Source: Rikenellaceae bacterium | GTDB taxonomy: Bacteria > Bacteroidota > Bacteroidia > Bacteroidales > Rikenellaceae | NCBI GenBank assembly: GCA_015060075.1 | Contig: SUZE01000007.1 | Location: forward strand, 9,119-73,118 | Direction of reading: 5' to 3' | Length of the DNA stretch: 64,000 bases | Part shown: in pieces, positions 15,887-36,094 of the stretch | Numbering within the stretch: the stretch's first letter is position 1 | How the letters are laid out: every line of letters starts with the position of its first letter | The notes under the pieces: generated by a model | Databases searched by the model: none | What the model was told of the DNA's origin: nothing | Seen by the model: the letters and a program-made list of their open reading frames with translations, nothing else | Translations under genes and position numbers: made by a program

Positions 15887-15935
15887 AAATGCAAAATTCA
15901 AAATTCAAAATGCAGAGTTAAAAGTTAAATACTCC

Positions 15936-15972: not shown

Positions 15973-16064
15973 CTTACATCGGCTTTTAGCCATTAGCCAT
16001 TGGCTTTTACGATTATCGCCTCGCAGATTATTCTGCGAGGCGATATTGCTATATTATTCAAGGT

Positions 16065-16688
16065 CTAATCATTTAAGTTTTTTAGATGGTATGCTATTGC
16101 ATCATTCATCATCTTGCTAACTTCGAGTACCTGATTTACAATAGTAACAAGATATGTTCTAACTGCTGGCATATTATGCATTATGGATTCAGCCGAAATC
16201 AATATTGCATCATCTGCATTGGAATATATCGCTTTGATGCACGATAAATTTTGGGAGATATGGTTACAAGCTTTGTATATAGCAAGCTCCTCTTTGGCTG
16301 TAAATGGTCTATCTTTGAGTGCATCCAAATTCTTTATATTGTATACAGGTGTTCTAACCAACAATATATTGCCTTGAAGTTCTAATCCAATACCCTTGCC
16401 TTCGCAGTTTAGCAAGATGAAAGTTCCGTTATCTCGGACTTCGTGAGGAAGATTTTCTGCTTGCAAGTATTCTTGTATAGCGCTCATACTAATTCCTGGC
16501 GTAAGAGCCTCTAAAACAGCCTTTGCCATACCATCGCCCTTTTCGGCTTGTCGTTGGAGTTTTGTCTTTTTTGCAGGCTGTTCTGTCTTCTGCTTTGGCG
16601 TTTTCTGTTTCTCCTGCTTCTCCGAAGCAACTCCCTGCTGCACACCCAATAATAAAAGGGAGAGGAGGATGGTTAATGTCTTTTTCAT
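16065..16688 (-). CDS. Secreted hypothetical protein, last gene of the AT-rich island
   Basis: It has a signal peptide (MKKTLTILLSLLLLGVQQGVAS), a Lys/Gln-rich linker and a globular domain of about 150 aa. A YbjN/chaperone-like fold is only a weak impression. The gap to the upstream gene is 11 nt. Confidence 0.6.
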   Translation of the reverse strand: MKKTLTILLSLLLLGVQQGVASEKQEKQKTPKQKTEQPAKKTKLQRQAEKGDGMAKAVLEALTPGISMSAIQEYLQAENLPHEVRDNGTFILLNCEGKGIGLELQGNILLVRTPVYNIKNLDALKDRPFTAKEELAIYKACNHISQNLSCIKAIYSNADDAILISAESIMHNMPAVRTYLVTIVNQVLEVSKMMNDAIAYHLKNLND

Positions 16689-16699
16689 AGAAATAAAGT

Positions 16700-17392
16700 T
16701 TAGTCGTTTTTGTCCTCTTGGAAAAGATTTAGTTGCGATTTTTTAGCCTCTTTTTGTCGTTTTCTGCGTTCAGAGGCAAGTTCTTTTTCTCGTTTTTTAC
16801 TCTCTTCTTTCGTCAAAGGAATAAATATATCATTGTTATTAGGATAGTTGCCTTCTATGTATAATTTTACTAATCCTGCATGAGATATAGGCTTTGTTAT
16901 ATCCCTAAATTCTGTATTGGTATTATAATCAAGGAGGACAATATCACTTTTATTTGATTGCTCTTTGATGCGAGATATAACATGTCTTACCTCTGGAATA
17001 TTATCTAATACCCATTTATATGTAGGTAGATAAATCTGCATACGAGCATCAAAATAATTTAGCAACTCTTTGCTCCTTGCTCCTTTTGCATGTCCTAGCA
17101 TTTTACCGTATTTACGAATAGTGCGTTTAACATCTTTTTGAGTATCATTTCTAAATGTTCGAAAATCGACTCCATGATGTTTGAATACTTTTAAGCCTTG
17201 CCATACCGACTCAACACAGGTTGCTGTTAAGCCATCTGTAAATGGAATGGGAATGTTTCCATGAGGATAAAATGGGCTTAATATCTGACCTGAATGTAAA
17301 GGGGAAGTTGATGTTATATCCAAAATAATGGCATTCGGAAATTCTGCCTTAATACTCTCTAATTTTCGTTTTTTATTTGCAATGTAAATCAT
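16700..17392 (-). CDS. Hypothetical protein with weak NADAR (YbiA/DUF1768)-like N-terminal motif and a Lys/Glu-rich tail; candidate antidote to the DarT-like protein
   Basis: Its start overlaps the upstream stop by 4 bp (ATGA at 17389-17392). The block SPFYPHGNIPIPFTDGLTATCVESVWQGLKVF resembles the NADAR block FSNF..DG...SxEHxFQxxKF. The C-terminal D..WG.G NADAR motif was not seen. Confidence 0.55.
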   Translation of the reverse strand: MIYIANKKRKLESIKAEFPNAIILDITSTSPLHSGQILSPFYPHGNIPIPFTDGLTATCVESVWQGLKVFKHHGVDFRTFRNDTQKDVKRTIRKYGKMLGHAKGARSKELLNYFDARMQIYLPTYKWVLDNIPEVRHVISRIKEQSNKSDIVLLDYNTNTEFRDITKPISHAGLVKLYIEGNYPNNNDIFIPLTKEESKKREKELASERRKRQKEAKKSQLNLFQEDKND

Positions 17393-18183
17393 CTTATATA
17401 TTCTGGGTTATCCAAATTTACAATAAATTCTTTTGGAATTACAGTTTTTACTAAAATTTCTGCTTGGTGATGCTTAAAATCGTTATCATCTCTACTTACA
17501 TAAGTTTTCTTGACCGCAACAAAATTAACTCTTTTTAAGTCATAAAGTGTTCCTCCAACATGATGGTTGCTATCTGTTGCATTTATATCGGAGAATAGAG
17601 TCCTTTCCCATAATGCTACATCTGTTTTGATTTTCAATAGTACCAATCTTTTGCCATCTTTTTTATGCCTATAAGCCATAGGATGATCCTCGCAAAAACT
17701 TAAACGAACATAATCTTGTAAATTATATTTCTTATCTAATTGTCGAGACTGCAAATCTCCTCCGGGTGATGGAATTTCTACGCCGTATGTATTGCACGAT
17801 TTCCACGATAATAGACCGCCATATTTTCTTATACTATCCAAGTTGCTTTCATCTGTAAAGTGGTAAAAATATCTTATGCCGTGCGATGCTAACAATTGTC
17901 TAATACTCTCACTATTCTCTTTTTTTGTAGGGAAAAGATTTTTCGTAATAGATAGTCGCAATGGTGAATCAATATTTGCGTTCTTTATCGGAGATGCTGG
18001 CTTAGAAACATCAGATGTTGTATTTATAGGTTTTCTTAACTCAGCTTCTTCATTAGACATTTTAATCAATAGGAATATGACTACTATAAGTGCAATAAGT
18101 CCTAAAATAGGGTGACACGCAAAACATCCTCCTACAATTATTATAGCCCACCAAGCACAGCCACAACCAAATCCCACATCCAT
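17389..18183 (-). CDS. Membrane-anchored DarT-like (DUF4433) ADP-ribosyltransferase
   Basis: The N-terminus has two hydrophobic helices (CAWWAIIIVGGCFAC, ILGLIALIVVIFLLI). The C-terminal domain carries DarT-type blocks YFYHFTDESNLDSIRKYGGLLS, DYVRLSFCEDHPMAY, LFSDINATDSN and HHQAEILVKTVIPKEFI, compared with DarT YH(I/F)T..NL.SI, DYVPFYF, FTD.NA and KQAE(F/V)LV. Confidence 0.7.
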   Translation of the reverse strand: MDVGFGCGCAWWAIIIVGGCFACHPILGLIALIVVIFLLIKMSNEEAELRKPINTTSDVSKPASPIKNANIDSPLRLSITKNLFPTKKENSESIRQLLASHGIRYFYHFTDESNLDSIRKYGGLLSWKSCNTYGVEIPSPGGDLQSRQLDKKYNLQDYVRLSFCEDHPMAYRHKKDGKRLVLLKIKTDVALWERTLFSDINATDSNHHVGGTLYDLKRVNFVAVKKTYVSRDDNDFKHHQAEILVKTVIPKEFIVNLDNPEYIR

Positions 18184-18226
18184 AATTTAAGTTTTTAAGA
18201 TTTAACAAATTTTATTATTATAGTAG

Positions 18227-19363
18227 TTAATAGTTTACAACTTTATCAAATGGTAGCCAACGACCATTTACATTTACTCCAATCCATCGCCATAAGCGGA
18301 TATCTTCTTGTTTGTATTTGGTGATAAACTTGAAATTTCTGTCATAAAAGTACCACTCATTTTCTCTAAGGAGGCAAATTATGTCATCTCTAAATTCAAC
18401 CTGTTCAAAGGAAGCATTTATAACTTGTTGTTCATTTGAATCTACAACGATAAAATACTTATCTCGTTTGGCACCAACGATATAAATATATTCACCTTCT
18501 TTCATGATTGGATATATCTCTTCGTAATTAAATGATATGATAACATTTCCTTCTATATCTGTAACACCCTTATAATAGGGACTTTCAAAGGCTATGCATA
18601 AATTATCGTCATACCTATAGCCTGGATATTTTAAGTTAAGCACAATTTCATTATCCAAGTTTATGTAACACATACCCTCATAATTATCGTTTATAGACAC
18701 CAAGCCATCATATTCTCTCCAACAATCTTCAAGCAATGATAAACTAGAAGCAAACGAAGCATTCCTTTTAAGAATAATTTCTCCTGATATTGAAAAAATA
18801 TAGATAGTATCTGGATGTCTATTTGTCGCCAAAATATATCCATCTAAAGTAAGTGAGATATCGTCATATTCAATAGGTATTATCATTCTACAATTCTTAT
18901 CTATTACTCCATATTTGTAGTCATTAAAGCCACCATGACCTCTTTTATACCTTACTTTTGCCAATCCAAATTCATTGAAATCGCCACAATATTCATATGG
19001 AGCATCTATACCATGACAAAGCGAAAAAGTTTTTGCGTCGTATATGAAACAATGCGGCTTGTTGTTTTCATCCATTTTTAGATGCCTATGCGTAGGATCA
19101 GTGTTATCTTTCAAACACGAAATATTCTCGTTGCTCCAATCTACTGATACAATATAAGCAGTACAAACTGAGTCAGGCGTTAAAGAGAGCATAAGAGTTT
19201 TTTCTATTACACCCTCTTTTTCGATAAAGAACTCTATCTTATAATTTTGGTTAACCTCTAAATCGAGGCAAACTATTTTGTTCGTTTTTAGAGCCTTTAC
19301 CTCTGATGAGCCAACAACCATTGTGCATGGTTTGTTACTGAAAATTCTTGCAATTGTCTTCAT
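18227..19363 (-). CDS. WG-repeat (KWG-like beta-propeller repeat) protein
   Basis: Repeated units of the form F.E.GLA.V......YG.ID..G..IIP..YD are present, for example FNEFGLAKVRYKRGHGGFNDYKYGVIDKNCRMIIPIEYDDI. No signal peptide is present. Confidence 0.7.
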   Translation of the reverse strand: MKTIARIFSNKPCTMVVGSSEVKALKTNKIVCLDLEVNQNYKIEFFIEKEGVIEKTLMLSLTPDSVCTAYIVSVDWSNENISCLKDNTDPTHRHLKMDENNKPHCFIYDAKTFSLCHGIDAPYEYCGDFNEFGLAKVRYKRGHGGFNDYKYGVIDKNCRMIIPIEYDDISLTLDGYILATNRHPDTIYIFSISGEIILKRNASFASSLSLLEDCWREYDGLVSINDNYEGMCYINLDNEIVLNLKYPGYRYDDNLCIAFESPYYKGVTDIEGNVIISFNYEEIYPIMKEGEYIYIVGAKRDKYFIVVDSNEQQVINASFEQVEFRDDIICLLRENEWYFYDRNFKFITKYKQEDIRLWRWIGVNVNGRWLPFDKVVNY

Positions 19364-19395
19364 ATCAGTACTATTTTCAGAGAGAGCTAAATTTA

Positions 19396-19581
19396 CTATT
19401 CATCGTCATAATCTTCATAATCACTACCGTCCCAATCAAAATCGTCATCTTCTTCATCGTTATAGCGACTATATCGATTTCGATTAACCATCTCCATGGC
19501 TTCCTCCATAGCTCTATCACATATATCATCCCAATCCTCCATTGACAACATGTCGTTGTCGTAATCATCAGTGTATCTCAT
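19396..19581 (-). CDS. Hyper-acidic 61-aa protein, first gene of the island
   Basis: The product is MRYTDDYDNDMLSMEDWDDICDRAMEEAMEMVNRNRYSRYNDEEDDDFDWDGSDYEDYDDE, with close to half of its residues Asp or Glu. It lies directly after the conserved leader and 32 nt before the WG-repeat gene. Confidence 0.55.
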   Translation of the reverse strand: MRYTDDYDNDMLSMEDWDDICDRAMEEAMEMVNRNRYSRYNDEEDDDFDWDGSDYEDYDDE

Positions 19582-19908
19582 AATATTTAAGTTGTTTTTT
19601 GCCCACCAACCCCGAATAAGGCGTTATTATAAATAAAGAAAGTGTGAGGTTGATTTTCGTTTATTTATAAGAAGGTTGTGGAATGACCTTGGAAGAATAA
19701 ACGCTACAATGCCTCACACCTGTATATAGCAACATATCGGTACAAGACATACCAACAGCATATATACAAGAAATGAGTGTTGCTCGTCTGCCCTCTTCCT
19801 TTGAAAACTTCCACATTTTCTTATAAGGACTTCGAAAAACACTTTCTATATGTCTGCAACCCAACGGACTGCACCACAAATATAGCAACTTATCTCGAAA
19901 AGTGCAAA
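19582..19908 (-). promoter_or_regulatory. Promoter plus a conserved 5' leader of about 290 nt (copy a of three)
   Basis: On the minus strand, -33 TTTG is at 19905-19908 and -7 TATATTTG is at 19877-19884, with 20-nt spacing. The leader aligns along its length with 35581-35913 and, more distantly, with 27162-27439. All three end in ccttattcggggttggtgggcaaa just before the ATG. Confidence 0.65.
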
Positions 19909-27083: not shown

Positions 27084-27161
27084 CTTCGTTCATATTTTTG
27101 CGTGCAAAAATACGAATTAAAATTGATAATTGACAATTGACAGTTGACAATTAAAGGTATT

Positions 27162-27439
27162 TTTGTGATTTTGAAAATAAATTTCTAAATTTGCGATACA
27201 TAATTACGCAGAAAGTGTAAGTTTATTCTCGGTTTGCGAATGTAGGAAGTTCGTTTTTACAATGAGGATAGGCTGCATCATCTTTCGTCATACCATCAGG
27301 TATGGCGTGGTGTTGTTGCTTATTTTAATTGTAAAGGTCTCCTACAACCTGCAAACCTAAAATAAGTCTTCAATCCCACGCTTTCTTTTTTATATTAACG
27401 CCTTATTCGGGGTTGGTGGGCAAACAAAAACTTACTAAA
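27162..27439 (+). promoter_or_regulatory. Promoter plus a conserved 5' leader (copy c, diverged)
   Basis: -33 TTTG is at 27162-27165 and -7 TAAATTTG is at 27186-27193, with 20-nt spacing. It shares the blocks cagaaagtgt, aatgt(a/g)ggaagtt, tcaggt.., aggtc..c.acaacc, and taacgccttattcggggttggtgggcaaa with copies a and b. Confidence 0.6.
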
Positions 27440-29641
27440 ATGAAGAAAATTCTTCTTTTTTCACTAATTGCATTACTTGTTAGCTGTGTTGATTATACAG
27501 ACGACATCAATGCGATTGATGAACGCCTCGATGCGTTAGAGCAATCTGTGCCTTCTATCGATGAGCAGATTGCAGCAATTCAGACCTCTATTAAGGCTCT
27601 CAAAGAGGTTGATGAGTCGTTAGACGAGAGTATCAAAGCCCTCGAAGCGAACGATGAAGCTACTGCCGAGGAGATTGCCGCATTGCAAGATGCAGACGCA
27701 GCTATCGAGGCTAAAATCGAGGAGTTGAAAAAGTATGTTGATGACGCCATCAAATCGACCAAAGATTGGGTATCCGCAACATTTGCCACTTTGGAGCAAC
27801 TCAACGCCTTGTCGAGCGAGGTCGCAGCCCTCAAATCGTTTGTTGATGCAAACAAAACTGAGGCTGCCGCAAATCTTGCAACCGCTATCACAAATCTCGA
27901 AACCTCGCTCAAAGCGTGGATAGGCGAGCAGTTGTCGAATTACTACACTATTGCCGAAATGGATGCAAAAATCGCAAATCTTGAAAAGGCAATTGCCGAT
28001 GGCGACAGCGCATTGCAACAGCAACTCAACGAGTTGAAATCGCAACTTGAATCTGCTAAGCAAGAAATAACCGAAGCGTACAAAACCGCCATTGCAGAGG
28101 CTATTACTAATAATAATGGCGTTATAGATGAAAAAATTGCAGCTGAAATTGCAATAGTAAACGAGCGAATAACAGCATTGGAAAATCGACTTAACACCCT
28201 CGAGGAGCGTATTTCAGCAGTGGAAGATGCTATTGAACAGATTAAAGCACTTGATATAACATTCGACAATGCCGACAATCTCGCTTGTAAAGCTGGCGCA
28301 AGCGTAGAGGTCTCTTACACCATTACGGGTGGCGACAGTCAAACAACTATTGAGGCTTGGGGCGATGGTGGTTGGAGCGCCGATGTCATTGCCGAAAGTA
28401 CCACAGCAGGCAAGGTTAAAGTTACCGCACCGAGTGAGATTTCTAAGAGGGGAAAAGTTGCTGTACTCGCAACATCAGGTGCTGGTGGTGTGGCTATGAA
28501 AACGCTCTACTTCGATAAGGGTATTTTGACTGATATTCTTGATACTTACGAGGTTGATTGGGAGGCTTGCACACTTAAAGTTACGCTTAAAACTAACCTT
28601 AACTACATTGTAAGTATCCCTACCGAAGCGCAAAGTTGGATAGCGGTTGCCGACACTCGTGCAACGCTACGCACCGAAACACTTACATTTACCATTGCCG
28701 AGAACCCCGAAGATATGCCCGTTCGTTCGGCTACTATAAATCTTATTAGTGAGTGTGGCGATGTGTTGCAGAGTTTCGAGATTATTCAAAACTACCAGCC
28801 TTCGAGTGCACCTATTGAGTTTGCTGATGCAAATGTTAAAAAGGTTTGTGTGGAGAAGTTTGACCTCAATGGCGATGGAGAACTATCGTATATGGAAGCA
28901 TCAAAAGTCAAAACTTTACCCTATCATTTTTTTGGCGACTATGCAACAGCTGTAACCTCTTTTGATGAGTTGCAATATTTTGTAAGACTTATTTCGATTG
29001 AAGGTTTTGCCTTTTATGATTGCAGTTCACTGATAAATATCAAGATTCCCAATAGTGTTACATCTATAGGTCAAGCATCTTTTTATGGTTGTGAAAACCT
29101 TGTAGATATAGTCATTCCAGAGAAAGTAAGCTCAATTGAAAGGGCAACATTTTTAGCTTGTAACAATCTTGTTAGTGTTACAATTCCCGATAGCGTCACT
29201 TCGATTGGTACAGAGGCATTTGGGTATTGTCATAAACTTAATGATATCAATATTCCCCACAGTATTATCTCTATTGGAAGTATCGCATTTCGAGGCTGTG
29301 CTATTGAGAATATTGCTATCCCGGAAGGGGTTACAGTTATTAGAAATTTAACATTTTATGAATGTAAGACTCTATTAAATGTGGTTATTCCAAAGAGTGT
29401 TATTTCTATTGAGAAACAAGCATTTTATGCTTGCTCAAACTTGACGACAGTTTGTTGTAAAGCAACAACGCCACCTCTCCTTGGAAAAGATGTATTTAAG
29501 CACAATGCTTATACGGGAAATGGTTATGAAAGTGTTAATGTTGGTTGTAAAATTTATGTGCCACGCAATTCGGTAGAGGCGTATAAGGCTGCCGATGGTT
29601 GGAGCGACTATGCTGCCTATATCGAAGGCGACGACTTCTAA
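27440..29641 (+). CDS. Surface lipoprotein: long coiled coil, BACON-like domains, dockerin/EF-hand-like loop and BspA-type leucine-rich repeats
   Basis: The ATG at 27440 gives MKKILLFSLIALLVSC. A heptad-rich region of about 260 aa follows, then DLNGDGELSYMEAS. The LRR units follow the pattern IPNSVTSIGQASFYGC.NL. The C-terminal block is CKATTPP...IYVP..S...YK.A.GW..YA.YI.G.DF. Confidence 0.8.
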   Translation: MKKILLFSLIALLVSCVDYTDDINAIDERLDALEQSVPSIDEQIAAIQTSIKALKEVDESLDESIKALEANDEATAEEIAALQDADAAIEAKIEELKKYVDDAIKSTKDWVSATFATLEQLNALSSEVAALKSFVDANKTEAAANLATAITNLETSLKAWIGEQLSNYYTIAEMDAKIANLEKAIADGDSALQQQLNELKSQLESAKQEITEAYKTAIAEAITNNNGVIDEKIAAEIAIVNERITALENRLNTLEERISAVEDAIEQIKALDITFDNADNLACKAGASVEVSYTITGGDSQTTIEAWGDGGWSADVIAESTTAGKVKVTAPSEISKRGKVAVLATSGAGGVAMKTLYFDKGILTDILDTYEVDWEACTLKVTLKTNLNYIVSIPTEAQSWIAVADTRATLRTETLTFTIAENPEDMPVRSATINLISECGDVLQSFEIIQNYQPSSAPIEFADANVKKVCVEKFDLNGDGELSYMEASKVKTLPYHFFGDYATAVTSFDELQYFVRLISIEGFAFYDCSSLINIKIPNSVTSIGQASFYGCENLVDIVIPEKVSSIERATFLACNNLVSVTIPDSVTSIGTEAFGYCHKLNDINIPHSIISIGSIAFRGCAIENIAIPEGVTVIRNLTFYECKTLLNVVIPKSVISIEKQAFYACSNLTTVCCKATTPPLLGKDVFKHNAYTGNGYESVNVGCKIYVPRNSVEAYKAADGWSDYAAYIEGDDF

Positions 29642-29667
29642 ACAGAAAGCAGTGCATTTTAATAACG

Positions 29668-29795
29668 GCAAGTAAGGGCTGTTATCGGCCAGTAAGGGCT
29701 AGTAAGGGTATGCGCTCCTCTTTACTAGCCGTTACTAGCCGTTAACTACCCTTAATCTGTTGCGCCGTGACAACGTTCGGAGTCTGCATAACGGA
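29668..29795. repeat. Solo palindromic word array (AGTAAGGG words) joined to a TGCGCCGTGAC..GGAGTCTGCATAAC scaffold
   Basis: Three forward agtaaggg words are followed by the centre tatgcgctcctc and then three reverse ttactag/cccttaa words. Next comes ttgcgccgtgacaacgttcggagtctgcataacgg, which resembles the segment tctgcgccttgacaaccctcggagtccgcataaccg in the arms of the ATPase element. Confidence 0.65.
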
Positions 29796-29799
29796 CAGC

Positions 29800-29842
29800 A
29801 CCCTCCGCAGAAAAAAACTCTGCGGAGGGTTTGTTTTTTTTT
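29800..29842 (+). terminator. Strong intrinsic terminator after the LRR lipoprotein gene
   Basis: The stem accctccgcag/ctgcggagggt is followed by tttgtttttttt. Confidence 0.85.
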
Positions 29843-30134
29843 GAGGGGGCGCAGGTTTTTGTGGCATTGAATGGCATTCGGGCTTTCAGCCCTTAATGGC
29901 ATAGAATGACACTCAATGACAGCGCAGTCTGCGACTGCTTAATGACAAAAAAATCGCTGAGCATAGAAAAATTGCTCAGCGATACCTTTAATTGTCACCG
30001 CTGCGATTAAGCCGAGCGCAGAGGCTGCTTGCAGACTTTGCCGAGGCGGAGCAGTGAAGACCGAAGGTCAATTCTCAATTATCAATTGTCAATTTGATAA
30101 GAAAAGCAACCCGAAGGCCGCTTTTCTTATCATC

Positions 30135-32853: not shown

Positions 32854-32900
32854 CTCAACACAACAAAAGGAGGACTAAATCCTCCTTTTGTTGTGTTGAG
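32854..32900 (-). terminator. Long hairpin downstream of tRNA-Gln that overlaps its 3' acceptor end
   Basis: A 21-bp stem ctcaacacaacaaaaggagga/tcctccttttgttgtgttgag has a ctaaa loop. Confidence 0.55.
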
Positions 32901-32966
32901 CTGCCGGGACTCGAACCCAGAACGACAGAACCAAAATCTGCTGTGTTACCATTACACCACAGCTCA
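32896..32966 (-). tRNA. tRNA-Gln (anticodon UUG), 71 nt, CCA not encoded
   Basis: A hand-folded cloverleaf has a 7-bp acceptor stem TGAGCTG/CAGCTCA with a U1:A72 pair. The D stem is GTGT/ACAC with a GG loop. The anticodon stem is GCAGA/TCTGT with loop TTTTGGT. The T arm is CTGGG-TTCGAGT-CCCGG. Confidence 0.88.
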
Positions 32967-33138
32967 ATCCGTTGCTCGTAAGCGGTGGCAAAGGTACAAC
33001 AAAAATTTAGAATTAAAAATTAAAAATTAAAAATTTGATAAAAAATATATATTATTCTTTTAATTGTCAATTATCAATTGTCACTTAAATTCCTTGTGCG
33101 CCACCTTACTTGCCGTTATAAATTGCACCGTTTTCCGT

Positions 33139-35580
33139 TTAGAAGTCGTAACAGACAATATAGTCCGCATACTCATTCCAGCCGTTAGCGGTTTTATATA
33201 CTTCAATCGAAGCTGTCGGCACATAAATCTGACGGTGCGAACTCGTACTATAAAACATATAACCACCGCCAGATGGGGGAGTTGTCGGTTTACAATATAC
33301 CTTTGTTAGCGAAGTGCAATTAGAAAATGCCCAATCTCCAATCGAAGTAATGCTATTAGGAATTGTAACAACCGTCAGCGACTCGCAAGTATTAAATGCG
33401 TAATTTCCAATACTAGCGACACTATTACCAATTGTTACACTTGAAAGCGATACACAGTTGTTAAATGCGTGATTTCCAATGCTAATAACACTATCAGAAA
33501 TTATTGCAGTTATCAGAGATGTACATTCAAAAAATACGGTATTTCCAATTGAGGTTACACCATTTCCCATTGTTATACTTTGTAGCGTATTGCAATTGTA
33601 GAACGCATAGTCCCCAATCGAAGTAACATCACCGTCAAACTTAATAACGCCTTTTCCATTCTCATAGGTATTCGACACGATATTCGCACCAAACGTAGCA
33701 AGTGCAGTTGCATAGTTATTTCCATCTCCATAGTATGGTGTTACAATTGCTCCATCTGATGAGGTGTACCAAATTTCATTATTTGCAGGTGATACAAGAG
33801 CCGCTTCGCCTTTTTCAAAATCGTATCCCGCAATATATGAAGCGTACTCTTTCCAATGCGTCTTTACCATATATGTACATATCGATGCCATAGGCACATA
33901 AATTTTAGGGCCCGAAGCATTAGCGTAAAACATACTGCGACCTCCTGTCGGTGGAGTAGTTGCCTTACAATACACCTCTTTTAGTGAGGTGCAGCAATCG
34001 AACGCACAGTCTTCAATCGAAGTAATACCGTTGCCAATAGTAACTCTTTTCAGCGACTTCAGATCATAAAATGCAGAATTTCCAATCCTAATAACTCCAT
34101 TACCAATTTTCACATCCTCTAAAGAATTACAACCTTCGAATGCACCATTGTCAACTGATGTGACACTATCAGGGATTGTAATGCTGGTAAGCGAGGAGCA
34201 ACTATCAAATGCTGCTGCTTCTATCGAAGTGACGCTGTCAGGAATCGTGATAGTTGTCAGCGAAGTACAACTAGAAAACGCATATCTTCCAATAGATGTT
34301 ACATCGTTAGGGATTGTGTAATGTGTTAGCCCACAGCCAATAGCAAATGATTCTAATACCCCATTATCTATTAGACAACAACCGTCAGATGATGCAAATT
34401 TTCCATAGAAAGCTTTTAACGAAGGACAACAATCGAGCGCATACTCATCAATTTCAATAACACCATTAGGTATTGTAATACTTGTCAGCGACATACATTC
34501 TTCAAATGCTCCATTGCAAATCTTTGTAACAACGCTATCAAACCTAATAATACCCTTGCCATTTTCATATGTATGGGACACGATAGTAGCACCAAATGCA
34601 TCTATTTGTTCATCTTCCTCTATACCAAGTTCTACAATCTGTCCATCTGTCGAGGTGTACCAAATTTCGTTATTAGCAGGCATTGGCGTACCTGGATTTA
34701 TTGTCGCAACGCCCTCGTAAACATTGTCATCGAGACTCCACTCTTTGATGCTGAAACTTGCAACTAATCCATTACTGGGCGCAGAGATTGTTACCTCAAT
34801 CTTATGTTGAGTTCCCGCCGTAAAGGTTATATCGGTGGCAAATGAATACTCTTTACCGTTAATTTTTACCGAAACGAGATTTGTGTCACTACTAACGGTC
34901 TGAGGAACTATCATTGCACGATAGTACGCTCCAGTGTTCCAAGGTGTAATCTCAGTTGCGCTACCCGTTGCCGTTGCAATACCGGTTGCAAGGTTGATGG
35001 TTGCAGAGTTCTTGATATTGCAAATTTTAACCTCGACATCTGCTGCTGCAAGTTCTGCTGCGGAGTAGCCATCGCCAGCCTTAATATATACCAAAGCATT
35101 GCTCAAAAGATGCTCTGTGGTAATTGTTACCGCACTCTTCGTAGGAGCAACGCCTGCGCATTTTCCCCACAAAAAGTCACTCGCCCAATAATCAGCCTCT
35201 GCGCTTTGGTCAGTATTAACGCTAAATGGGTATGCCGAAACATCGGTTGGGTTACCGTATGGATAGTAAGCATAAAAATCTGCTTTGGTAGATGCATCTT
35301 TCCAATACAACTCCTCATCTGCTCTCCAATCGGTTGAAAGAGTAAAACAAGCATTGTTTACATGGTTCTCGGTAGATGTTAAAGTTCCTGCCGTAGAGCC
35401 ATTGTAATTTACCACATAGAGCCCGACCTGATCGCTACTCTCGAAAGCTGTGTCATTGGCACGAGACTTCTCAAAGTTGATTTTAATTGGCAATCGGTCC
35501 ACAAGTTGCTCGTCTTGTGATGCATCATTCGTACAACCAATCAATAGAGCCACCAATGCAAATAGTGAAAATCTTTTCAT
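33139..35580 (-). CDS. Surface lipoprotein: fimbrillin-like N-terminal region plus two blocks of BspA-type leucine-rich repeats
   Basis: The ATG at 35580 gives MKRFSLFALVALLIGC. The LRR units follow the pattern IPDSVTSI...AF..C.SL. Two copies of the module CKATTPP..G...F....IYVP..S...Y....W.EYA.YI.GYDF are present. Confidence 0.8.
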   Translation of the reverse strand: MKRFSLFALVALLIGCTNDASQDEQLVDRLPIKINFEKSRANDTAFESSDQVGLYVVNYNGSTAGTLTSTENHVNNACFTLSTDWRADEELYWKDASTKADFYAYYPYGNPTDVSAYPFSVNTDQSAEADYWASDFLWGKCAGVAPTKSAVTITTEHLLSNALVYIKAGDGYSAAELAAADVEVKICNIKNSATINLATGIATATGSATEITPWNTGAYYRAMIVPQTVSSDTNLVSVKINGKEYSFATDITFTAGTQHKIEVTISAPSNGLVASFSIKEWSLDDNVYEGVATINPGTPMPANNEIWYTSTDGQIVELGIEEDEQIDAFGATIVSHTYENGKGIIRFDSVVTKICNGAFEECMSLTSITIPNGVIEIDEYALDCCPSLKAFYGKFASSDGCCLIDNGVLESFAIGCGLTHYTIPNDVTSIGRYAFSSCTSLTTITIPDSVTSIEAAAFDSCSSLTSITIPDSVTSVDNGAFEGCNSLEDVKIGNGVIRIGNSAFYDLKSLKRVTIGNGITSIEDCAFDCCTSLKEVYCKATTPPTGGRSMFYANASGPKIYVPMASICTYMVKTHWKEYASYIAGYDFEKGEAALVSPANNEIWYTSSDGAIVTPYYGDGNNYATALATFGANIVSNTYENGKGVIKFDGDVTSIGDYAFYNCNTLQSITMGNGVTSIGNTVFFECTSLITAIISDSVISIGNHAFNNCVSLSSVTIGNSVASIGNYAFNTCESLTVVTIPNSITSIGDWAFSNCTSLTKVYCKPTTPPSGGGYMFYSTSSHRQIYVPTASIEVYKTANGWNEYADYIVCYDF

Positions 35581-35913
35581 TGTTGAAATAAGTTTTTTGC
35601 CCACCAACCCCGAATAAGGCAGTTATATAAAATAAAGAAAGTGTGAGGTTGATTTTCGTCTATCTATGTGACGGTTGTGGAATGACCTAAACTGAAATAA
35701 ACGAAGCATTACCTCACACCTGAATAGTATGAGGTACGCAGAAAAGCGTATAGCCACATAACTATACAAGAAATGAGTGCTATTCGTCTGCCCATCAGTT
35801 TGCTGAAAACTTCCACATTTTCACATAAGGACAAAAGCGAAAAACACTTTCTATATGTCTGCAATCCAACGGACTGCGTTACAAAAGTAGAAACTTTTTC
35901 TGAAAAGTGCAAA
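35581..35913 (-). promoter_or_regulatory. Promoter plus a conserved 5' leader of about 290 nt (copy b)
   Basis: On the minus strand, -33 TTTG is at 35910-35913 and -7 TACTTTTG is at 35882-35889, with 20-nt spacing. It aligns with copy a over the whole length except a variable central block. Confidence 0.65.
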
Positions 35914-36094
35914 AAAATCAGCCAATGGCCAATGGTTAAAGGCTAATGGCTCACGAAAATCTGCAAGGTTGAAAAATTGTTAATAAGTGAAATGGTCGCT
36001 ATACCTCCTATTATTATAGGAAAGTGTAATTTTGTAAGCGTAAAAAAGTGAGAACTCACAAAATTGCATAGGAAGACTCAAAACATTATATAAA

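Follow-up and report, generated by a model that had tools for sequence, protein, structure and literature searches.

The question of why one conserved promoter and leader should stand in front of several otherwise unrelated operons is raised by a 64,000-nt stretch of DNA from a Rikenellaceae bacterium (contig SUZE01000007.1; hereafter the window, to which all coordinates refer). Three homologous promoter-leader modules were found in it: copy a at 19579–19908 on the minus strand, copy b at 35578–35913 on the minus strand and copy c at 27162–27442 on the plus strand. Comparison with related copies revealed covarying RNA helices, a core that is supported in two pairing registers, and a location at the edge of replaceable gene cargo. 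We rate the modules as a new family of large structured leaders, and we lean towards the view that they act in cis as a structural gate on read-through or on the fate of the mRNA.

Three homologous modules in the window

The homology of the three regions, proposed in the initial annotation of the window, was borne out by alignment, by nhmmer and by a covariance model. Alignment of copies a and b gave 78% identity across ~340 nt. Copy c is much more diverged, its blastn alignment being limited to its 3′ 105–180 nt. It is nevertheless recognised as a full member of the family both by nhmmer (E 9e-33) and by a 3′-domain covariance model for which no window sequence was used. This model matched copies a, b and c with E-values, to be taken as rough, of 8.5e-28, 2e-27 and 7.5e-15, and the sense strand was otherwise empty. 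No further copy was found in the 64-kb window by nhmmer or the covariance model.

The same exact 25-mer, GCCTTATTCGGGGTTGGTGGGCAAA, is present in all copies (three occurrences, listed as H4 in Table 1, against a chance expectation of none), and the ATG lies 16, 15 and 15 nt after it in copies a, b and c, in agreement with the common 3′ end shortly before the ATG that had been described. The promoter geometry described for the modules, TTTG followed after 20 nt by TAnnTTTG, is exact in all three. A segmental duplication including coding sequence, named in the initial annotation as a possible explanation of the similarity, was not seen, as the homology ends before the ATG, save for a likeness among signal peptides. 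All three copies are located in divergent intergenic regions beside genes with housekeeping-type Pfam matches (glycosyltransferase, Era, Ffh, PurA and PurT).

Distribution of the leader family

Genomes, one per species, were scanned with 20 nt of the 25-mer and 26 loci were obtained, all in Rikenellaceae/Alistipes metagenome-assembled genomes (MAGs), with up to six loci in a single MAG. Three additional copies without the exact motif were found by nhmmer within these loci. For the metagenome scan, the pattern was taken from elsewhere in the element (GTGTGGGG, 50–80 nt, CYYCACACTTTCTT), chosen so that the 25-mer would not be judged from hits selected by it. At least 120 loci were found, and most contigs with a source stated in the name were from human gut. 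Among the matches listed, the 25-mer was present in none of the 120 metagenome loci, and in nearly all of them the promoter box and GAAAGTG were spaced as expected. A profile built from the first 28 copies matched all 146 loci then collected (E 1e-5 or better), and the non-identical copies collected number more than 130, which is a lower bound. The organism names on neighbouring proteins were A. finegoldii, A. shahii, other Alistipes and Rikenellaceae, and no other name was obtained. Within what was scanned, the family has so far been found only in Rikenellaceae/Alistipes-type gut bacteria.

The module had not been recognised as any named riboswitch or leader, and no Rfam 15 family was found to match it in the window, in 20 related loci or in copy a. 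At gathering score the window gave a tRNA only, and the 20 related loci gave only tRNAs together with cobalamin and TPP riboswitches located elsewhere; a scan of copy a at a permissive E-value returned only chance-level microRNA and small nucleolar RNA matches. The sole Rfam match of the window is a tRNA-Gln (anticodon UUG) at 32895–32966 on the minus strand, ~170 nt past the stop codon of the cargo gene behind copy b. A BLAST search of plasmid and phage collections with copy a gave no match, and 11 matches in 2.9 million viral contigs indicate that the element is not phage-borne. In literature searches on the motif sequence, on Alistipes RNA motifs and on Alistipes transcriptomes the element was not found described. 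The catalogue of candidate structured RNAs of Fremin and Bhatt (PMC8040213, Table S1) holds an entry, HMP2_1016, of 63 bp and 146 instances, 144 of them in Rikenellaceae and Alistipes-dominated. It is listed without sequence, so that its overlap with the leader, of which it could be a fragment or to which it could be unrelated, cannot be judged.

Covariation and the rod fold of the core

From 5′ to 3′ the leader comprises a hairpin (P0), an ACAUA linker, a core of ~200 nt, a U-rich tract, a second hairpin (H4), an A-rich spacer and the start codon, with a length of 250–300 nt. Covariation was assessed in an alignment of 99 non-redundant copies, in which pairs were counted for pre-specified structures. 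The structures were derived from copy a, and therefore the covariation counts and the controls with slid partners are the relevant evidence, not the percentage of paired cells alone. In 500 shuffle controls, none reached the observed percentage paired or the covariation score for the helices P3 and P4, S3 or X:H4 discussed below. The larger alignment called for in the initial annotation did contain covariation, and ~90 base pairs are backed by compensatory changes.

When copies were folded singly, the core formed one long irregular hairpin, here called the rod, with z-scores of −4 to −6 (copy b −4.0, copy c −6.2). Of 97 copies, 95% have the rod as their lowest-energy fold, at an average of 11 kcal/mol below the state containing hairpin H3. 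For P3 and P4 together, 94.9% of cells were paired versus 70.2% in shuffles, and the covariation score was 0.657 versus 0.201, and 0.13 or less with partners slid. One column pair, for example, is AU in 28 copies, UA in 28, CG in 22 and GC in 10. P4 joins the apical loops of the 5′ and 3′ halves of the core and occurs as UGUGGAA/UUCCACA, UCUGGAA/UUCCAGA, UUUGGCG/CGCCAAA and UCUGACA/UGUCAGA. The whole rod gave a covariation score of 0.303 versus 0.109 or less with slid partners. Across the paired columns, G.U cells outnumber A.C cells by 5:1 (1050 versus 208); selection on the structure therefore acts on the sense strand alone, and not on a DNA palindrome. A first proposal by RNAalifold, in which the −7 box was paired with the tail of H4, was dropped, the box being promoter DNA.

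The 5′-terminal hairpin P0 is supported in the same way, with six of six pairs covarying and 88% of cells paired. Its tetraloops are GNRA or YNCG in 33 of 61 cases, versus ~6% expected from base combinatorics, and this enrichment is an RNA signature.

The alternative hairpin fold

Four strands of the core are invariant: strand 1, GAAAGUGU; strand 2, CACUC (CACUCAU); strand 3, GUGUGGGG; and strand 4, CACACUUUC (CYYCACACUUUC). In the hairpin register, pairing of 1 with 2 and of 3 with 4 gives two hairpins, H1 and H3, which flank the apical hairpin H2. In the rod register, 2 pairs with 3 and 1 with 4, and the rod is zipped by P3 to P6. Thus in copy a the same segment, AGAAAGUGU, serves as a 5′ arm twice, for P1 when the rod forms and for S1 when the hairpins form.

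H1 forms locally in the 5′ half of the core. Its helix S3 was paired in 95.2% of cells versus 88.7% in shuffles, with a covariation score of 0.370 versus 0.249; five of its five pairs were changed on both sides, and 51 cells were changed on both sides versus 17 ± 6 in shuffles. S3 cannot be nested with P3 and P4, yet it covaries. These data support two pairing registers of the core, local hairpins and the rod.

H3 is made of T1 (GUGUGGGG/CCUCACAC), T2 and T3 and is followed immediately by UUUCUUU(U/A)U. It forms in 28 of 28 copies at −18 to −29 kcal/mol (copy b −29.2). The T1 of copy c is GGCGUGG/CCCACGC, and its H3 (−28.6 kcal/mol) has helices that differ from those of copies a and b on both sides. 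In all copies T1 (GUGUGGGG/CYYCACAC, 8–10 bp) has the U tract directly after it, as expected of an intrinsic terminator, and H3 is thus a putative terminator. It is not called by a simple terminator scan, because its "loop" is a structured insert of 60–70 nt.

H4 and its pairing with X

The loop of H4, GGRGNNG, is complementary to a segment of the core termed X (CNNCYYC, located just 5′ of CACAC). Matching pairs of X and H4 loop include CAACUCC/GGAGUUG, CAGCUCC/GGAGCUG and CGGCUCC/GGAGCCG, and the window has CAACCUC/GGGGUUG. In the 99-copy alignment, X:H4 was paired in 95.9% of cells versus 88.8% in shuffles, with a covariation score of 0.387 versus 0.236; five of the seven pairs covary, and 83 of the 99 copies have all seven. 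Watson–Crick pairs numbered 615 of 693, versus 527 ± 7 when X was permuted among the sequences. The rod leaves X unpaired in an internal loop, where it is available for the H4 loop.

The H4 stem is of 3–6 bp and varies among clades. Because other clades have different H4 sequences, with covarying stems and loops complementary to X, the 25-mer of the window is the local version of H4. Variants of the 25-mer in two copies found by nhmmer (L011b and L008b) preserve the pairing with X. The GGAG in H4 was considered as a Shine–Dalgarno sequence and rejected, since its purine covaries with X and its distance to the ATG ranges from 4 to ~90 nt. In L081, L113 and L142 a run of 9–10 G is found directly after the 3′ side of H4; it could be prone to slippage, altering the hairpin or the start of the downstream gene.

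Taken together, the family is defined by TAnnTTTG; the series GAAAGUGU...CACUC...GUGUGGGG...CNNCYYCACACUUUCUU; covarying P3 and P4; an H4 loop complementary to X; and an open reading frame (ORF) within ~130 nt. Copies a and b show every feature. Copy c lacks P0, its T1 differs on both sides, and it retains P1, P4, X:H4, the U tract and H4.

Predicted promoter and 5′ end

Copies a, b and c each have TAnnTTTG with a TTTG-like −33 element ~19–21 nt away, and hence a predicted promoter of the Bacteroidota sigma-A type. In the 28 complete copies of the genome scan the spacing of TAnnTTTG is fixed without exception; it lies 257–323 nt upstream of the ATG, which in these copies follows the 25-mer after 4–21 nt. 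In 116 further non-identical copies it lies 140–200 nt upstream of the H3 arm GUGUGGGG. A conserved RAAAnnnTTTC is found immediately 5′ of the −7 box. The −33 element is exactly TTTG in ~19% of family copies, and the remainder are T/G-rich there.

A transcription start just after the −7 box had been predicted, and the position of P0 points to the same place: because P0 begins 2–5 nt past the box, all its pairs covary and its tetraloops are enriched, the start is placed just upstream of P0 and probably lies there.

Many intergenic regions of the window are filled with tandem heptamer repeats (AATTGAC/AATTGAT, TTACTAGCCG, AATGGCA, AAAATTC and GCCATTG), at 27124–27158, 29660–29760, 29865–29935, 30065–30100, 33005–33090, 15895–15935, 15985–16005 and 35920–35955. 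They are frequently situated just upstream of leader promoters and just after cargo genes, and related (GAGAATT/AAGAATT)n runs were seen upstream of the leaders in L007, L014, L016 and L017. An 11-nt inverted repeat (I5) between the −33 region and the A-rich spacer was considered as an invertase site and rejected; it was judged a by-product of T-rich and A-rich signals.

Reading frames and downstream genes

No reading frame is conserved through the leader. The stop after MWKFSAN in copy b, where copy a reads on, was confirmed, and the ATG of this frame is absent from most family members. A leader-peptide attenuator was therefore rejected, there being no conserved leader ORF and the AUG of MWKFS (in the S4 stem-loop region) being AUC or AUU in most copies. 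The proposal of a non-coding leader rather than a peptide is supported by the promoter position, the covarying helices and the lack of a conserved ORF; its function is probably cis-regulatory. The features of a riboswitch were not seen either: the rod and X:H4 together leave hardly any conserved base unpaired, and the downstream genes are heterogeneous.

A same-strand ORF of at least 60 amino acids (aa) starts 20–130 nt downstream in 88% of 132 copies, versus 36% at random positions, and many of the remaining copies precede peptides of 30–50 aa. The proteins encoded downstream have no common function; they include surface lipoproteins with DUF4988, BACON or leucine-rich repeat (LRR) domains, outer-membrane barrels, DUF2158 proteins, a DarT operon, small peptides and many proteins without a Pfam family. 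In the window, Pfam found a DarT/NADAR-type operon after copy a and BspA-LRR lipoproteins after copies b and c, matching the ADP-ribosyltransferase island and the two BspA-type LRR lipoprotein genes of the initial annotation.

The copy a cargo resembles a defence or toxin island: its 61-aa ORF is extremely acidic, DarT is a single-stranded DNA ADP-ribosyltransferase, and the DUF6939 protein has weak similarity to NADAR antitoxins. A family of peptides of 38–52 aa was observed directly behind leaders at L001:1043–1156(−), L005:3747–3884(−), L013:1154–1279(+), L025:916–1044(−) and L061:2126–2251(−), and in L067, L071 and L123. These peptides share a core of approximately xPKIEVxxxxVExGF and an acidic tail usually ending in W, gave no Pfam or NCBIfam match, and may be precursors of secreted or modified peptides.

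Exchange of cargo behind fixed leaders

The module marks the edge of replaceable gene cargo. At the purA-side site occupied by copy b, three related loci (L021, L001 and L002) align with the window through purA and the leader, and the alignments end at ~35586–35596, in or just after H4. Instead of the LRR gene they carry a lipoprotein of 163 aa, a peptide of 38 aa and a lipoprotein of 121 aa; L003 and L008 retain the LRR gene at this site.

At the copy a site, L006 has 99.6% identity on the glycosyltransferase side and retains the promoter and the 3′ block of the leader. The leader interior and the 3-kb cargo differ, and similarity to the window resumes at the ferritin-like gene (95%). For copy c, the LRR gene and the 3′ part of the leader are 97% identical in L017 (3048–5584 versus window 27370–29911) and the upstream flank 89%, and the L017 leader has a 5′ half of a different type. 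Such a pattern points to a recent transfer, or conversion, that took in the cargo and a portion of its leader. With middle or 5′ parts swapped in L006 and L017, the leaders are evidently mosaic and recombining.

A scan of 20 neighbouring ORFs around the three copies turned up no recombinase, and no shared flank repeats or target duplications were seen on inspection of the flanks of the three window copies. Replacement of cargo does occur, but an adjacent integrase and cassettes with structured recombination sites, as in an integron, were not seen. Nor does the module look like a miniature inverted-repeat transposable element (MITE) or a Correia-type element, as its orientation and ATG distance are fixed, the same site is occupied in related genomes and selection is on a single strand. 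Between the convergent cargo operon of copy a and the ferritin-like gene, a perfect palindromic, terminator-like hairpin (CGCCTCGCAGATTATTCTGCGAGGCG, 16017–16042) was observed, kept in L006 and absent from the other loci fetched. It was considered as a shared cassette end and rejected as locus-specific. The positions of the leader features and cargo genes are given in Table 1.

Table 1. Positions of leader features and cargo genes of the three copies in the window
Feature	Copy	Position	Strand	Description
−33 element	a	19905–19908	−	TTTG, 20 nt upstream of the −7 box
−7 box	a	19877–19884	−	TATATTTG; Bacteroidota-type promoter (predicted), TAnnTTTG at fixed family distance
P0	a	19856–19872	−	5′-terminal hairpin GCAGUCC-GUU-GGGUUGC; covariation
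Linker	a	19848–19853	−	Single-stranded ACAUAU; ACAUA almost invariant in 99 copies
H1	a	19769–19847	−	5′ half of core; starts AGAAAGUGU (19839–19847); apical loop GUGGAA
S3	a	19826–19830 and 19790–19794	−	GUCCU pairs AGGGC
P3 and P4, 5′ arms	a	19809–19826	−	P3 19818–19826; P4 19809–19815 (UGUGGAA)
H2	a	19721–19768	−	Variable apical hairpin, tip of rod; base helix covaries (helix 13)
H3	a	19642–19720	−	3′ half of core; inverted repeat I1; covariance-model match E 8.5e-28
T1	a	19712–19719 and 19642–19649	−	GUGUGAGG pairs CCUCACAC
T2, T3 and H3 loop	a		−	T2 CGUUUAUU pairs AAUAAACG; T3 AAGGU pairs ACCUU; loop CAUUCCACA
P3 and P4, 3′ arms	a	19665–19683	−	P3 19665–19673; P4 19677–19683 (UUCCACA)
X	a	19646–19652	−	CAACCUC; pairs H4 loop; overlaps top of T1
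P1, 3′ arm	a	19637–19641 and 19642–19645	−	Second part ACAC; 13-nt inverted repeat with 19839–19851 (I4)
U-rich tract	a	19629–19641	−	UUUCUUUAUUUAU, right after T1; conserved CACACUUUCUU
H4	a	19598–19622	−	Invariant 25-mer; stem GCC(U)/(G)GGC; loop with GGGGUUG 19607–19613
Cargo	a	16065–19581	−	61-aa acidic ORF (ATG 19579–19581), WG-repeat protein, DarT, DUF6939/NADAR-like protein, lipoprotein; Pfam
Promoter (predicted)	b	35882–35913	−	−33 TTTG 35910–35913; −7 TACTTTTG 35882–35889
P0	b	35861–35877	−	
Core	b	35641–35852	−	H1 35769–35852, H2, H3 35641–35720; P4 arms 35811–35817 and 35676–35682; X 35645–35651
U-rich tract	b	35627–35640	−	
H4	b	35596–35620	−	25-mer; loop GGGGUUG 35605–35611
Cargo	b	33139–35580	−	Mfa-like and BspA-LRR lipoprotein (ATG 35578–35580); Pfam
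Promoter (predicted)	c	27162–27193	+	−33 TTTG 27162–27165; −7 TAAATTTG 27186–27193
Leader body	c	27198–27381	+	Divergent subtype without P0; linker ACAUAA 27198–27203; P1 5′ arm AGAAAGUGU 27210–27218
P4 arms, H3 and X	c		+	P4 GUAGGA 27242–27247 and UCCUAC 27340–27345; H3 27304–27381; X CAAUCCC 27371–27377
U-rich tract	c	27382–27393	+	
H4	c	27400–27424	+	25-mer; loop GGGGUUG 27409–27415
Cargo	c	27440–29641	+	Coiled-coil, BACON and BspA-LRR lipoprotein; Pfam

Proposed mechanism

If the leader is a structural gate, as we lean towards, the promoter would start an RNA carrying P0 (absent in copy c), the linker, the core, the U tract, H4 and the spacer. Should H1 persist while H3 is being made, pairing of strands 3 and 4 (T1) together with the U tract would stop RNA polymerase, and a short leader RNA would be released. 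Should strand 3 instead be captured by strand 2 as an extension of H2, T1 would not form, the rod would, and transcription would run into the gene; P1 and X:H4 would then lock the read-through RNA into a stable, 5′-protected rod. Termination versus read-through would be the regulated step, with some signal shifting the balance. That the control is exerted on termination specifically is a tentative and somewhat doubtful proposal. With a promoter of its own and an end immediately ahead of the start codon, the module could serve as a portable platform for expression, bordering chromosomal slots whose cargo differs.

Several points weigh against such a gate. No signal or ligand is apparent, and with nearly all conserved bases paired in the rod there is no obvious binding pocket. 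The downstream genes share no function and form no coherent regulon, which would not usually be expected of a sensor. T1 and CACACUUUCUU owe their invariance in the 99-copy alignment partly to the search pattern, as does the 20-mer in L001–L026. The support for S3 comes mainly from one strongly covarying pair. The rod helix P5, strong in the 28-copy alignment, was only 52% paired in the 99-copy alignment and was dropped as a reliable helix. In addition, P1, with an A-rich 5′ arm and a U-rich 3′ arm, could itself be a terminator, in which case the two folds need not differ in read-through. Finally, the rod may form by co-transcriptional strand displacement, so that the H3 terminator never forms and S3 is a folding intermediate only.

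A bolder form of the proposal, to which we give little credence, is a two-state RNA device joined to a plug-and-play docking point for cargo, in which two hairpins and one rod interconvert by exchange of four strands, like a migrating four-way junction, and a pseudoknot locks the outcome. If it were true, fixed platforms would exist at many chromosomal sites, surface, defence and peptide genes would be swapped through recombination inside the leader or at its end, and any docked cargo would come under common, perhaps stochastic or growth-rate-dependent, control. It would then amount to both a new class of large cis-regulatory RNA and, coupled to it, a new organisation of accessory genes.

Alternative explanations

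The rod could be the sole functional fold of an element for mRNA stability or processing. Together with P0 it would block decay that requires a free 5′ end, or a cut of the RNase III type would yield an mRNA headed by H4; nothing would be sensed, and the local hairpins would be folding intermediates only. That the rod is lowest in energy in 95% of copies and has the strongest covariation agrees with this, as do the location of P0 at the extreme 5′ end with stable RNA tetraloops and the functionally unrelated downstream genes, which fit a generic expression enhancer. Long irregular RNA duplexes are plausible substrates of RNase III, and the rod is one of ~90 bp. However, S3 covaries though it cannot be nested with P3 and P4, a stabiliser would need neither four invariant strands with two registers nor a covarying H4 pseudoknot, and known 5′ stabilisers are much smaller. 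We regard this explanation as unlikely.

A free-standing small RNA gene was also considered, with a product of ~240 nt that ends at the H3 or P1 hairpin and U tract and acts in trans or bound to protein, downstream expression being incidental read-through. The unit does consist of a promoter, a structured body and a hairpin with U tract, and it is present in many copies per genome with conserved ends and variable interiors. Yet its orientation is fixed, with an ORF start within ~130 nt in 88% of copies, and between the U tract and the ATG there is neither room nor a motif for a second promoter. H4, beyond the U tract, covaries with X, so that the functional RNA extends past the putative terminator, and the pairing of leader and gene is kept across Alistipes loci, as with the DUF2158 genes of L033, L062, L075 and L145. 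A small RNA gene is therefore improbable.

We consider it quite improbable that the module acts at the DNA level, as a mobile promoter-bearing palindromic repeat in the manner of MITE, Correia or ERIC elements, or as an integron-like recombination site with the 25-mer as the core site of a recombinase. The excess of G.U over A.C reflects selection on one strand, the tetraloops of P0 are of RNA type, and orientation and spacing to start codons are fixed. Where the 25-mer varies, in L011b and L008b, its pairing with X is preserved. On inspection, the flanks of the three window copies shared neither a terminal repeat nor a duplication, the neighbouring ORFs scanned yielded no recombinase or transposase, those with Pfam matches being ordinary cellular genes, and the searches of plasmid, phage and viral sequences described above likewise speak against mobility. 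These observations stand against the features that a DNA element would account for, namely multiple palindromic copies, the mosaics in L006 and L017, the end of homology to related genomes right after H4 with differing cargo beyond, and the invariance of the 25-mer in the clade of the window.

Finally, an Frpo-type promoter, a hairpin of single-stranded DNA that works on DNA transferred by conjugation, would also be a strand-specific hairpin of ~200–300 nt upstream of accessory or defence-type genes such as DarT, but is extremely improbable here, as the promoter boxes belong to ordinary duplex DNA and not to the hairpin, the loci are among housekeeping-type genes (ffh, purA, era and purT), the ORFs scanned included no transfer genes, there were no plasmid matches, and the window loci are not in leading regions of conjugative elements.

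Comparison with known systems

To our knowledge, almost no gene regulation has been described in Alistipes and its relatives, although they are common gut bacteria. A leader of 250–300 nt, several per genome assembly and with unusually strong covariation, would add substantially to the large RNA structures of bacteria, seemingly without metabolite sensing. The genes behind it encode surface proteins (BspA-type LRR and BACON lipoproteins), defence functions (DarT) and small peptides that may be secreted, and through them it may control traits relevant to host and phage. Since the leaders stay while the cargo changes, the long-standing question of how newly acquired genes gain ready-made expression signals becomes directly testable, and the module could be a natural portable expression part for those Bacteroidota that are hard to engineer.

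By analogy, the Rikenellaceae leader appears to work most like a terminator/antiterminator leader. Like trp- and pyr-type attenuators and the platforms of riboswitches and T-boxes, it is promoter-proximal and has mutually exclusive helices and a G+C-rich stem with U tract upstream of an ORF. It differs in having no aptamer-like pocket, leader peptide, coherent regulon or Rfam match, in the exchange of two whole hairpins for one rod, and in a covarying pairing of a loop with an internal loop past the U tract.

Gultyaev, Franch and Gerdes are said to have described, in 1997, a folding pathway for hok-family mRNAs in which metastable local hairpins compete with long-range 5′–3′ pairing. As in the hok mRNAs, covariation for local folds and for mutually exclusive long-range folds is found in one RNA, and the long-range fold is stable. 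Unlike them, the Rikenellaceae element is a 5′ leader and not a toxin mRNA, has no antisense partner, precedes many unrelated genes and shows no sequence similarity to them.

Stabilisers in 5′ untranslated regions (ompA type) and leaders processed by RNase III also have a hairpin at the extreme 5′ end and a long duplex before the translation start. The Rikenellaceae leader is far larger, has alternative pairings and a pseudoknot, and is a lineage-specific multi-copy family.

The Correia elements of Neisseria and the ERIC elements of enterobacteria are likewise multi-copy, imperfect palindromes of ~150–300 bp near gene starts that give hairpin transcripts and supply promoters. In contrast, the Rikenellaceae leader has a fixed orientation and ATG spacing, stable orthologous positions, selection on one strand and extensive compensatory change, and inspection of the three window copies revealed neither terminal inverted repeats in common nor target duplications.

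With the integron platform (Pc-attI) and the rAID-1 arrays of Bacteroidales, the module shares a conserved element that borders replaceable cargo, including defence-type genes and orphan small proteins. The rAID-1 arrays are recombinase-linked arrays in the same orientation with short intergenic repeats (bioRxiv 10.1101/471110), and identity with them was set aside on these grounds. The Rikenellaceae leader has no adjacent tyrosine recombinase and no same-orientation array; each cargo has its own promoter and a leader of ~300 nt, and the breakpoints and mosaics are compatible with ordinary homologous recombination.

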